Source: a virus. Taken from it: a stretch of 12,423 nt of DNA. The translations under genes and the position numbers were made by a program. The stretch is from the UHGV virus genome UHGV-1781828. The stretch is one strand, 5' to 3'. The stretch's first letter is position 1. Each line of letters begins with the position of its first letter. The notes beneath the pieces are model-generated. The model saw nothing but the letters and a program-made list of their open reading frames with translations, did not search any database and was not told where the DNA came from. This document shows, in pieces, positions 3,729-6,991 of this stretch.

Positions 3729-3804
3729 TGGATTGATCCAGTAATGACCTCAGAATTGCATATCAATTTGCTTAAAATCCTCGGTGGCGGCCGGGGATTT
3801 TTTC
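3729..3804 (+). ncRNA. oop: oop-like antisense RNA overlapping the 3' end of the cII-like gene
   Basis: Plus-strand ggattgatccagtaatgacctcagaa... resembles the recalled 5' portion of lambda oop RNA. A CATAAT -10 hexamer lies at 3715-3720 and an intrinsic terminator at the 3' end. The transcript is antisense to the cII-like C-terminus. Ends are approximate. Confidence 0.6.
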
Positions 3805-4046
3805 TTTGTGATTTCATCAAGCGCATACTTAAAAGCCCTACTAATCGGACTGATGTCTGATGCCATTCCTAAAGCACACAAGACCGAAGCAATAAATCTC
3901 CAGTCCGTTCTGCTTATCTTCGATTCATGACAGCCAATCATCTTTGCCAAACCGCGCTGGGTAAGCGTTGACAGGTTGATGAGTAAATCAGTTTCAGCGC
4001 GATCAATTTCTCGCTGTGTTGGCTTGCTGTAACTTGCTTGTGTCAT
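3750..4046 (-). CDS. cII: CII-like transcriptional activator (98 aa)
   Basis: Lies directly after cro and nutR. Its C-terminal tail KKKSPAATEDFKQIDMQF matches the lambda CII tail KKRPAATERSEQIQMEF as recalled; the N-terminal part is diverged. Confidence 0.8.
   Translation of the reverse strand: MTQASYSKPTQREIDRAETDLLINLSTLTQRGLAKMIGCHESKISRTDWRFIASVLCALGMASDISPISRAFKYALDEITKKKSPAATEDFKQIDMQF
3778..3806 (+). terminator. Intrinsic terminator of the oop-like RNA (to-like)
   Basis: TCCTCGG-tggcgg-CCGGGGA (7-bp stem with one G-U pair, 6-nt loop) followed by TTTTTTCTTT. Confidence 0.65.
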
Positions 4047-4130
4047 TTCTTAATATTTCCAATAGTGAATAGTTAGTTGAAAGGTATGCGTGGAAACGCA
4101 TATGGCCTTAGTTGGTCAGATATATTGGGA

Positions 4131-4147
4131 CTCGCTTTGTCAGCGAC
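4131..4147 (-). promoter_or_regulatory. nutR boxB-like hairpin, P22 type
   Basis: Minus strand reads TCGCTGACAAAGCGA, a stem-loop with the GACAA pentaloop of P22-type boxB (canonical GCGCUGACAAAGCGC as recalled), located between cro and cII. A further hairpin (TATGCGT-ttcc-ACGCATA, minus strand, 4085-4102) lies downstream at a tR1-like position but lacks a T-tract. Confidence 0.55.
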
Positions 4148-4184
4148 GTAGGACGAATGTCCATTGTGAAAATAGCGGTGTTAC

Positions 4185-4394
<210 letters not shown>

Positions 4395-4409
4395 TTAGTA
4401 CATGCAACC

Positions 4410-4481
4410 ATTATCACCGCTAGAGGTAAAATAGTCAACACGCACGGTGTTAGATATTTATCCCTTGCGGTGATAGATTTA
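4410..4481. promoter_or_regulatory. Right operator and divergent promoters PR / PRM (OR1, OR2, OR3)
   Basis: OR1 4412-4428 (tatcaccgctagaggta), OR2 4436-4452 (caacacgcacggtgtta), OR3 4459-4475 (tatcccttgcggtgata). PR -35 TTGACT and -10 GATAAT on the minus strand (plus 4433-4438 and 4410-4415). PRM -35 TAGATA at 4451-4456 and -10 GATTTA at 4476-4481, with the cI ATG at 4486 (leaderless, as in lambda). Confidence 0.9.
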
Positions 4482-4482
4482 A

Positions 4483-5199
<717 letters not shown>

Positions 5200-5217
5200 T
5201 TTTAAGGAAATATCTTC

Positions 5218-5658
5218 ATGAGAGAAGAAAAAATAATAACAATCTACACAACGGCGGTAAAACCCGGGCTGGCAATCACTCCTTTTATGACACCAGATCC
5301 TATAATAGTGTCGGAAGAATACCCTTGTTCCGGCTCATTTTACCTAACTGCAATAATGTACTTCGAGCACGAAAAAAAATACACTACCGAACTTGATGTC
5401 GTATTCAATGGAGAATCGGTTTTACCTGATATCTCTAGCAATCAAGAGCAACTGCAAACATTTATGTTTTCTCCTGTCAATGAAAAATATGTTGTGGTTG
5501 GCACATATCTTTTCGTTAAAAACATCAAACTTATAGAAACAGGAACATATGACATAATTTATCGCATCTTTGAAGACATTGATGGTAATCTTAGCGAAGT
5601 TATTGATGAAAAAAAATGCGCTCTTATTTCAACCACCCCGAACAGAGATAAGGAATGA
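5218..5658 (+). CDS. Hypothetical protein (146 aa), first gene of the cassette in the rexA position
   Basis: Track ORF starting 19 nt after the cI stop on the same strand, AAGGA Shine-Dalgarno. Visibly AT-rich compared with the flanks. Acidic, no transmembrane segment, no recognisable motif. Confidence 0.6.
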   Translation: MREEKIITIYTTAVKPGLAITPFMTPDPIIVSEEYPCSGSFYLTAIMYFEHEKKYTTELDVVFNGESVLPDISSNQEQLQTFMFSPVNEKYVVVGTYLFVKNIKLIETGTYDIIYRIFEDIDGNLSEVIDEKKCALISTTPNRDKE

Positions 5659-6011
5659 AACGACATCTGTACGCTGTGCCTCTTGACAGGAGTAAAGTTG
5701 ATAATTTTCCACATAACCACCATAATGATGAGACATATGGTGGTGGTAACGGTGGAGGTGGTGACATGTTACAGCGCATAAAAATTCTTGAAGATAAAGT
5801 CGCAACCATGGCGACCGACATCGCTGTAATTAAGTCTAACTATGCAACATCTGCCAATGTAGAATCTGTTAAAACAGACATAGCTAATGCAAAAGCAGAA
5901 CTTCACAGCGCAATGAGACTCCAAGCCATGGCTATTATTGGTTCAGTTCTTGCAGCCGTTGGAACTGGTGTTGGGTTAATAATAAAAATGATGCCATCAC
6001 TACCTCACTAA
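5655..6011 (+). CDS. Hypothetical membrane-anchored coiled-coil protein (118 aa; alternative start at 5766 gives 82 aa), second gene of the cassette in the rexB position
   Basis: ATGA overlap with the upstream gene. An in-frame ATG at 5766 has a strong GGAGGTG Shine-Dalgarno. Predicted amphipathic helical region (LQRIKILEDKVATMATDIAVIK...AKAELHSAMRLQ) followed by a single C-terminal transmembrane helix with small-xxx-small motifs (AMAIIGSVLAAVGTGVGLIIKMM). Confidence 0.6.
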   Translation: MKRHLYAVPLDRSKVDNFPHNHHNDETYGGGNGGGGDMLQRIKILEDKVATMATDIAVIKSNYATSANVESVKTDIANAKAELHSAMRLQAMAIIGSVLAAVGTGVGLIIKMMPSLPH

Positions 6012-6022
6012 GAATCTACACA

Positions 6023-6049
6023 ACCCGGCCTCAGCGCCGGGTTTTCTTT
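6023..6049 (+). terminator. Rho-independent terminator after the cassette (tImm-like position)
   Basis: ACCCGGC-ctcagc-GCCGGGT stem-loop followed by TTTCTTT, 12 nt past the stop at 6009-6011. Confidence 0.6.
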
Positions 6050-6200
6050 GCCTCACGATCTCCCCACCTAAAAACACATAACCAATTGTATTTGTTGAAA
6101 AATAAACAGATACAACTCACTAAACATAGCAATTCAGATCTCTCACCTACCAAACAATGCCCCCCTGCAAAAAATAAATTCATATAAAAAACATACAGAT

Positions 6201-6270
6201 AACCATCTGCGGTGATGAATTATCTCTAGCGGTGTTGACATAAATACCACTGGCGGTGATACTAAACACA
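6201..6270 (+). promoter_or_regulatory. Left operator and PL promoter (OL3, OL2, OL1)
   Basis: OL3 6201-6217 (aaccatctgcggtgatg), OL2 6221-6237 (tatctctagcggtgttg), OL1 6245-6261 (taccactggcggtgata). PL -35 TTGACA at 6235-6240 and -10 GATACT at 6258-6263, directing rightward transcription toward N. Layout matches the lambda PL region as recalled, with several point differences. Confidence 0.9.
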
Positions 6271-6331
6271 TCAGCAGGACGCACTACTCACCATGGCGGT
6301 GAATATACAACGATTCGAATATGAATCTACG

Positions 6332-6346
6332 GCGCTGACAAAGCGC
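6332..6346 (+). promoter_or_regulatory. nutL boxB hairpin, P22 type
   Basis: GCGCTGACAAAGCGC: 5-bp stem with GACAA pentaloop, matching P22 boxB as recalled. Lies about 65 nt downstream of the PL start in the N leader. Confidence 0.6.
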
Positions 6347-6607
6347 AATAACCAAAGTGAACTTTGGGGTGTGGTGAAGCCAGCTAGTCACTGGCAAGTG
6401 CTTACCTACTGTTGAGCGGTGAAGCGCTCCCAACGCTAGCAATAGCGTGGACGAGATGGGGAGCCGCGGGCGATAAGGCCGCCATAACGCGCACGTTGTC
6501 GCATGGAAAAATCACTGGGGTGCCGGTTATACCCCTCCGAATGAGACTCAACAAGCTGGAGCTAGACTACCAGCCACCACACCACCAAAGTTCATCAGGA
6601 GGTCTAT

Positions 6608-6991
6608 ATGACACGCAGAACTCAGTTCAAAGGCAATTCACGTTCTCGTCGTCGTGAGCGTTTAAAGGCAAAGGCATTAGCTAACGGCGTACTGGCCCGC
6701 GAAGAAGCAATAAGTTCAGAAGTATTACACCGCCCTACTCTAAGCAGAGCGCAGATTCAGGCTAAAGGTACTCACGAAACGCCTGAGCGCATAGAAGACG
6801 CTAAGCCAATTAAGTTCATGGCACAGGACGTGATCTGGCAACAGAAAGAATACAGACGCAATCTGGAGCGAGCGGCCATTGTGTACGCGAATGAGTTTGG
6901 ACATAAGCAACCAGAAACTGGTGTATGTCTTCCAAACGTAGCCATTTACGCGGCAGGCTACCGGAAATCAAAACAACTGACGGCGAGGTGA
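6608..6991 (+). CDS. N: N-like transcription antitermination protein (P22 gene 24-like), 127 aa
   Basis: First gene downstream of PL/nutL, AGGAGG Shine-Dalgarno. N-terminal arginine-rich motif (GNSRSRRRERLKAKALA). C-terminus PNVAIYAAGYRKSKQLTAR resembles the P22 gp24 C-terminus as recalled. Confidence 0.75.
   Translation: MTRRTQFKGNSRSRRRERLKAKALANGVLAREEAISSEVLHRPTLSRAQIQAKGTHETPERIEDAKPIKFMAQDVIWQQKEYRRNLERAAIVYANEFGHKQPETGVCLPNVAIYAAGYRKSKQLTAR

Follow-up and report, generated by a model that had tools for sequence, protein, structure and literature searches.

The window analyzed here, a stretch of 12,423 nucleotides of the virus genome UHGV-1781828, carries an immunity region with the gene order cro, OR1-OR3, cI, two open reading frames in the rexAB slot (5218-6011), Timm, OL3, OL2, OL1, PL, and N. 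The open reading frames of cro, cI, cII, and N are intact. The cI repressor gene (4486-5199, plus strand) encodes a protein of 237 residues, which is the same as the CI of HK97 and mEp234 and is matched at 100% by many IMG/VR loci. It differs from lambda CI only by Thr2Ala in the N-terminal arm and by Lys70Asn, and the 66-residue Cro (4185-4385, minus strand) differs from lambda Cro only by Lys39Asn. Both genes are ~99% identical to those of lambda. All these substitutions are common to the plaque-forming phages HK97 and mEp234, and neither the two in CI nor the one in Cro falls in helix 3, leaving the recognition helices unchanged. The window has cognate cI and cro genes with the lambda recognition helices beside a matching OR. 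As a side observation, the Thr2 of lambda CI is the rare form, found at 4 of 80 loci (cI window positions 4492-4494 and 4696-4698).

The rexA/rexB slot between cI and Timm contains two overlapping open reading frames, 5218-5658 (146 residues) and 5655-6011 (118 residues), which are unrelated to the rexAB of lambda. Searches of Pfam and PADLOC gave no match for either, and the PHROGs matches were to families of unknown function only. In relatives, the cargo of this slot includes rexAB, hicAB, DUF3024, DUF2335, and DUF1828. The window's pair may constitute a module for exclusion or defence, as yet uncharacterised, that is expressed from PRM. Downstream of the slot, a terminator scan located Timm at 6022-6043 on the plus strand, where it ends the cI operon upstream of OL; mEp234 and HK544 have homologous terminators annotated as Timm.

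The left operators and OR1

The J02459 sequence itself served as the lambda reference, and the plus strand of the window corresponds to the leftward (PL) direction of lambda. Three lambda operator-like, 17-bp pseudo-palindromic CI/Cro sites align with those of lambda without gaps. OL3 occupies 6201-6217 (AACCATCTGCGGTGATG; aligned to operator-l3 of J02459), OL2 occupies 6221-6237 (TATCTCTAGCGGTGTTG, aligned to TATCTCTGGCGGTGTTG in J02459), and OL1 occupies 6245-6261 (TACCACTGGCGGTGATA, the same as in lambda). The spacers, 3 bp between OL3 and OL2 and 7 bp between OL2 and OL1, are also those of lambda, and so are the -35 and -10 hexamers of PL. From OL3 through OL1, 59 of 61 bases are the same as in lambda OL1-OL2-OL3/PL (J02459 35591-35651). 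The differences from lambda OL/PL are 6217 A>G, 6228 G>A, the discriminator (AAACAC versus GAGCAC), and leader positions +17 to +19. The base at 6217 is position 17 of OL3, which ends in GATA in lambda. This is position 1 of the consensus half-site, where the change turns T into C; one half-site each of lambda's own OL2 and OR2 begins with C. The base at 6228 is position 8 of OL2, in the non-consensus half and at -42 relative to the PL start.

The right operators OR1 (4412-4428), OR2 (4436-4452), and OR3 (4459-4475) were placed within 4412-4475 by comparison with lambda and by the CI energy matrix described below. OR1 reads TATCACCGCTAGAGGTA on the plus strand, and its reverse complement is TACCTCTAGCGGTGATA versus TACCTCTGGCGGTGATA in lambda. 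The T at 4421 (C in lambda) is a G>A at position 8 of 17 on the other strand, at -18 of PR. OR1 and OL2 carry the same position-8 G>A in an identical 11-bp core, CTCT-A-GCGGTG. Across the six operators, the window departs from lambda at 3 of 102 bases, each of them a low-information position. The preliminary description had reported the OL2 substitution, the OL3 ending, the differences at the PL start, and the parallel with OR1, quoting lambda sequences for comparison. All of these bases are present in the window, and the quoted lambda sequences agree with J02459. Near OR1, the inferred +1 base of PR (window 4403, plus strand) also varies in relatives, being T in 68/80 and G in 12/80, and leader positions 4408 and 4409 are variable too. 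Below, the window alleles are named by their plus-strand bases, that is, OR1-T, OL2-A, and OL3-G.

PL, its leader, and the N module

PL lies at 6235-6270 on the plus strand, with the -35 hexamer TTGACA at 6235-6240, the -10 hexamer GATACT at 6258-6263, and the start at A 6270, which is placed by homology with lambda and with the annotated pL of mEp234. In the promoter scan, the hexamers match at 10 of 12 positions and are separated by a 17-bp spacer. Consistent with a sigma-70 promoter under operator control, the -35 overlaps OL2 and the -10 overlaps OL1. Immediately downstream of the -10, the window reads CTAAACACA versus CTGAGCACA in lambda, with G>A at 6264 and 6266. In the leader, 6286-6288 are changed from GAC to ACT (GCACTACTCACC in the window versus GCACTGACCACC in lambda), and past ~6293 the two sequences are wholly unlike. 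The segment 6264-6293 on the plus strand is an HK97-type PL start and leader that leads into an HK97/mEp234-type nutL-N module. The window's bases in this segment are also those of HK97, mEp234, PhiR5_2, the prophage of E. coli ABWA45, and 46 of 78 IMG/VR contigs, and intermediate recombinant PL leaders are present among relatives. The sequence comparison indicates that the discriminator and leader changes mark a mosaic junction just after the PL -10.

Downstream of this junction, nutL and N are of the HK97 type in the window and of the lambda type in lambda. A putative nutL boxB (GCGCTGACAAAGCGC) at 6332-6346 on the plus strand is predicted to form a hairpin, and its position is homologous to that of the annotated boxB of mEp234 (EF120460). 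The N antiterminator gene (6608-6991, plus strand; 127 residues, HK97/mEp234 type) matches Pfam PF25694 N_peptide with E = 2e-15, and its DNA is 96-99% identical to N of HK97, mEp234, and PhiR5_2. As in an HK97-type N/nutL module, the PL leader has a boxB hairpin ahead of the N peptide gene. The RefSeq/PGAP annotation of several E. coli genomes reduces an intact HK97-type N gene of 127 residues to a 69-nt pseudogene named 'regulator, incomplete' (8824-8892 in L008; ~3108-3213 in L166, L167, and L169). In strain PD7, the HK97-type N is correctly annotated as an N peptide.

The leader also contains the 9-mer TGGCGGTGA at 6294-6302, which recurs in the window only once, within OL1; the chance expectation for the whole window is ~0.09 copies. 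The preliminary description had considered it an additional operator half-site-like element. The 9-mer is real, but a fourth CI operator at 6288-6304 is not credible in view of its energy and half-site spacing. This register is the best of the overlapping 17-mers and scores +9.3 kcal/mol with the CI matrix, a non-specific value; 262 other 17-mers of the window score at least as well. Both halves lack the essential A of position 2, and 5 bp separate the arms TCACC and GGTGA, versus 3 in an operator. The perfect 9-mer owes its existence to a rare G>T at 6294: the base is G in 47/47 HK97-type IMG/VR loci and in 4/4 inspected E. coli relatives, and the T is shared by ABWA45 only. The 9-mer is part of the inverted repeat TCACC-ATGGC-GGTGA (6288-6302, plus strand), a predicted RNA hairpin of the PL leader. 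RNA folding gives UCACC-AUGGC-GGUGA for the window leader and CACC-AUGAA-GGUG for the lambda leader at the same place. More generally, HK97-type and lambda-type leaders alike are predicted to form a hairpin of the type (U)CACC-N5-GGUG(A) at ~+19 to +33 of the PL transcript (complement of ~35552-35563 in lambda J02459), with conserved arms and different loops. The half-site resemblance of 6294-6302 is explained by this predicted leader hairpin or by plain shared ancestry at the mosaic junction.

Distribution of the alleles in relatives

We aligned the window with named sequences (lambda, HK97, mEp234, HK544, HK244, HK542, PhiR5_2, and the ABWA45 prophage) and with two samples of IMG/VR contigs. 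The cI-anchored sample comprises 80 contigs found via the cI protein, 75 of which provided loci for the OL counts; the OL-pattern sample comprises 78 contigs, with OR1 readable in 62. OR1-T occurs in 66/80 cI-anchored loci and in 46/62 OL-pattern contigs, and every aligned named sequence other than lambda and HK544 has it. In complete E. coli genomes, the 67-nt OR haplotype of the window is matched exactly in 147 records and that of lambda in 160, the latter including laboratory strains. Hence, the OR1 base of the window is the common wild allele, and lambda carries the minority base.

OL2-A and OL3-G occur together in 10/78 OL-pattern and 12/75 cI-anchored contigs, and one further contig has OL2-A alone. 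In the cI-anchored sample, each allele is found in 12/75 loci, and 6217-G accompanies OL2-A in every case. The IMG/VR occurrences represent ~15 distinct sequence contexts, none with the window's rex-slot genes. Among 582 complete E. coli genome records with this OL, 10 are exact to an 80-nt query and 10 have one mismatch. As the lambda-type OL differs from the query at two bases, each one-mismatch genome must carry at least one of OL2-A and OL3-G; the four that were inspected all have OL2-A. The sources of the ten exact matches are wastewater, chicken, human, river, and cattle; dog, crow, and pig are among the further hosts recorded for these genomes. In these E. coli prophages the rex-slot cargo varies from rexAB itself to DUF3024, DUF2335, and DUF1828. 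The pair is found in 0/35 GenBank phage collection records holding this OL, and in none of the named phages. The OL2-A haplotype is on an HK97-type leader in 11/11 cases (P ~0.003 against a 59% background), which is expected because the sites are 35-60 bp apart. OL2-A/OL3-G is an established, linked minor haplotype moving between mosaic prophages. The one new element is the absence of this allele pair from the sequenced phage isolates of the collection searched. The preliminary description had itself raised the objection that its differences might be the common alleles of related prophages; this holds for OR1 and for the PL start (66/80 and 46/78, respectively), and in part for OL2 and OL3 (12/75).

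Two records from these searches deserve mention. In L166 (E. coli strain 1190), OL2-A/OL3-G is combined with another OL2 change, T>C at its position 1 (equivalent to window 6221), and the rexA/rexB genes are of the lambda type. In the record MW057783.1, 'Campylobacter phage CJLB-4' (48,361 bp), the immunity region with rexAB, cI, and cro has the coordinates and the degree of identity of lambda; the record resembles lambda DNA and not a Campylobacter phage.

By sequence, the ABWA45 prophage (NZ_CP022154, ~3.609 Mb) is the closest relative of all, lambda OL/PL and the immunity regions of HK97 and mEp234 being the other close ones. The ABWA45 prophage is 100% identical over window 6100-6400, including OL2-A, OL3-G, and 6294-T; across 3791-6989 the identity is 98.8%, and both rex-slot open reading frames are shared. 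Its replication genes and the sequence past N are different, reflecting mosaicism, and it has an extra E>K in CI and an extra V>I in Cro. Its match to the window is confined to the immunity region, and among complete E. coli genomes coverage of the window reaches 66% at most. HK97 (AF069529) and mEp234/HK106 (EF120460/EF120461) are wild lambdoid phages with lambda-type cI, cro, and operators. They share with the window an identical CI, Cro K39N, OR1-T, the HK97-type discriminator, leader, and boxB, and the 127-residue N, whereas their OL2 (G) and OL3 (A) are of the lambda type and they have G at the equivalent of 6294. Their rex-slot cargo, hicAB in mEp234 and gp48/gp49 in HK97, is also unlike that of the window.

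The operators of the relatives are highly conserved. Common variants (minor-allele count at least 4) occur at 4/102 operator positions, compared with 24/101 positions in the flank 6100-6200. Three of these four are position 8 in the non-consensus half of OR1, OL1, and OL2, and the fourth is position 17 of OL3. Minor-allele counts at position 8 are 14/80 for OR1, 16/75 for OL1 (G>A at 6252, where the window has the lambda-like G), 12/75 for OL2, and 3/80 for OR3 (T>C at 4466); that at position 17 of OL3 is 12/75. The clustering at position 8 has P ~5e-4 under a uniform null and P ~0.01 if only positions cheap for CI are considered, both tests having been framed after the pattern was seen. Six OR1/OL1/OL2 combinations were observed, namely T/G/G, C/G/G, T/G/A, T/A/G, T/A/A, and C/A/G. 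All four OL1/OL2 combinations occur at a separation of only 24 bp, a pattern compatible with recurrent mutation or with recombination on a very fine scale, and one that could point to selection over pure neutrality. OL2-A/OL3-G assorts freely with the OL1 allele. A Dcm hot spot for C>T in CCAG was considered and rejected, the contexts being CCAGA or CCAGT instead of CCWGG. The preliminary description held parallel changes in OR1 and OL2 to be unlikely at random. It was right in that the position-8 G>A recurs, in OR1, OL1, and OL2, but the OR1 and OL2 alleles show no association beyond background: OL2-A is found with OR1-T in 12/12 cases, with P ~0.10 given the 83% background frequency of OR1-T. 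The regularity at position 8 is one of tolerance, not of coordinated change.

CI binding, immunity type, and rival explanations

The cost of each change for CI can be estimated from the systematic OR1 base substitutions that Sarai and Takeda measured with CI, whose values Table 3 of PMC2194778 reprints in the orientation used here for OL. At position 8 of TACCTCTGGCGGTGATA (G10 in the table), G>A costs +0.4, G>T +0.5, and G>C +0.2 kcal/mol, and A>G at position 17 (A19) costs +0.4 kcal/mol (PMC2194778). Substitutions at positions 9-13 and 16, in the consensus half and the center, cost 1.1-3.7 kcal/mol; Cro substitution values are not tabulated there (PMC2194778). We built a CI energy matrix from this table, assuming additivity of costs that were measured in OR1 and for CI only. 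The changed base of OL2 sits in the 11-bp core that is identical in OR1. The six operators are the six best of ~24,800 17-mers in the 12.4-kb window, from -0.2 to +3.0 kcal/mol, with the next at +4.8 kcal/mol. Specifically, OL1 scores -0.2, OR1 0.4, OL2 1.5, OL3 1.9, OR3 2.2, and OR2 3.0 kcal/mol, and the rank order is that of lambda. OL2 is at +1.5 versus +1.1 kcal/mol for lambda OL2, and OL3 at +1.9 versus +1.5 kcal/mol for lambda OL3. Since 0.4 kcal/mol amounts to a ~two-fold difference in Kd, the predicted effect of each operator change is a ~two-fold loss of intrinsic CI affinity. The high-information positions (2, 6, and 7 of the left half; 9-13 and 16 of the right half) are untouched in the window and in nearly all relatives.

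Like the virulent, operator-constitutive (v-type) mutations of lambda, the window changes are single-base substitutions inside OL2 or OR1. The v mutations strike high-information positions and strongly cut repressor binding, whereas the window changes cost +0.4 kcal/mol and are common in wild lysogens. We rejected an operator-constitutive mutation at this locus, since such a mutation should cost 1-3 kcal/mol or more, the OR1 value is +0.4, and many lysogens carry the alleles. In lambda, cooperative OL1-OL2 binding buffers a slightly weaker OL2, and with a slightly weaker OL3 the repression of PRM over long range could be marginally relieved. The changed base of OL2 is at -42 of PL and that of OR1 at -18 of PR, and nothing points to promoter effects. 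By analogy with lambda, any phenotype is expected to be a small shift, not heteroimmunity.

We consider the locus to be, with a probability of about 80%, the ordinary OL/PL of a lambda-immunity prophage, whose differences from lambda are natural, near-neutral alleles and confer no new specificity. By homology to lambda, CI dimers would bind OL1 and OL2 cooperatively and shut RNA polymerase out of PL, and OL3 would aid the long-range OL-OR loop that damps PRM. Upon induction, PL transcription would proceed through the HK97-type nutL into the HK97-type N. The analysis directly shows sequence identities, allele frequencies, and matrix scores; repression, looping, and homoimmunity are inferred from lambda. 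With ~two-fold weakening of CI binding per site and an unchanged operator rank, a lysogen of this prophage should stay immune to lambda, and a lambda lysogen should be immune to this phage; the identity of the proteins to those of HK97 and mEp234 and the small predicted ddG point the same way. A literature search for a statement on HK97-lambda homoimmunity returned nothing useful. The preliminary description implied a coordinated operator change that might give heteroimmunity. This reading does not hold, as the OR1 allele is in the majority, the leader is the standard HK97 type, each change costs +0.4 kcal/mol, and the recognition residues of CI and Cro are unchanged. A new immunity specificity, as in a heteroimmune lambdoid phage, was rejected on the unchanged recognition helices and on the 3/102 differing operator bases, all of low information.

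An alternative that we regard as unlikely is that the position-8 alleles of OR1, OL1, and OL2 and the position-1 allele of the OL3 consensus half are selected tuning variants. Through slightly weaker CI binding or altered Cro occupancy, they would then move the level of CI in the lysogen, the threshold of induction, or the tightness of PL. Selection, or else recurrent parallel mutation or gene conversion from operator to operator, would maintain their combinations. The same G>A is indeed found at the homologous position of all three operators carrying G there, the six allele combinations include four OL1/OL2 gametes 24 bp apart, and the enrichment of position 8 persists among CI-cheap positions (P ~0.01). 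The sites lie at -18 of PR and PL (OR1 and OL1) and at -42 of PL (OL2), where promoter effects are conceivable. Against these points, each change costs only ~0.4 kcal/mol for CI, position 8' already varies within the operator set of lambda itself (G, C, T, G, G, T by sequence), and three parallel events are unsurprising because G>A is the sole transition possible at G. There is also no association past physical linkage (OL2-A with OR1-T in 12/12, P = 0.10), and the lambda switch was reportedly found by Little and colleagues in 1999 to withstand far larger changes in operator affinity. It is similarly doubtful, though conceivable, that position 8 acts as a natural tuning knob, at which G>A in OR1, OL1, and OL2 (and T>C in OR3) would arise or spread repeatedly by recurrent mutation or short-patch conversion between operators. 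Combinations such as the A alleles of OR1 and OL2 with a weakened OL3 would then be maintained via CI occupancy, PRM autoregulation, and the induction threshold.

Much less probable is a diverging specificity, in which the operators have co-evolved with CI Thr2Ala and Cro Lys39Asn to give partial heteroimmunity to lambda. Thr2 belongs to the N-terminal arm of CI, which in repressor-operator crystal structures reaches the operator center where position 8 lies, and Ala2 and OR1-T occur together in all seven of the nine named sequences carrying either. The two sites are ~70 bp apart, however, and linkage alone would yield this co-occurrence. In the 80-locus sample they are uncoupled: the codon base for Ala2 (4492 G) is found in 76/80 and OR1-C in 14/80, so that at least 10 loci combine Ala2 with the lambda OR1 base, and we rejected co-evolution of Thr2Ala with OR1 position 8 on this ground. 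Moreover, HK97, mEp234, HK244, and HK542 carry Ala2 with OR1-T, and the mEp234, HK244, and HK542 records annotate the operators as Cro/CI sites; the high-information operator positions are intact in the window and nearly all relatives. Formally, Thr2Ala in the arm contacting the operator center could still bring about a subtle change of specificity. The least probable account, which we hold to be very improbable, is a sequencing or assembly error or the decay of a dead prophage with unconstrained operators. The restriction of OL2-A/OL3-G to prophages (0/35 phage records) would suit it. Sequencing error, which the preliminary description had named as a possible source of its differences, is excluded by the independent occurrences of the 80-nt haplotype in 10 complete genomes and ~15 distinct IMG/VR contexts, and ABWA45 is identical over 6100-6400. 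Decay is at odds with the intact cro, cI, cII, and N, with a CI 100% identical to that of HK97, and with the near invariance of operator positions besides position 8 in relatives, which implies continuing purifying selection.

As a standard lambda-immunity switch, the locus has little discovery value in itself. Because the OR1 base of lambda is a minority allele, textbook lambda is not the modal wild sequence. The ~80 wild prophages provide a natural mutagenesis of the best-studied operator, which is near-invariant except at the position cheapest for CI, in agreement with the biophysics. The OL2-A/OL3-G haplotype could offer a way of asking whether induction set points move when operator affinity changes two-fold.
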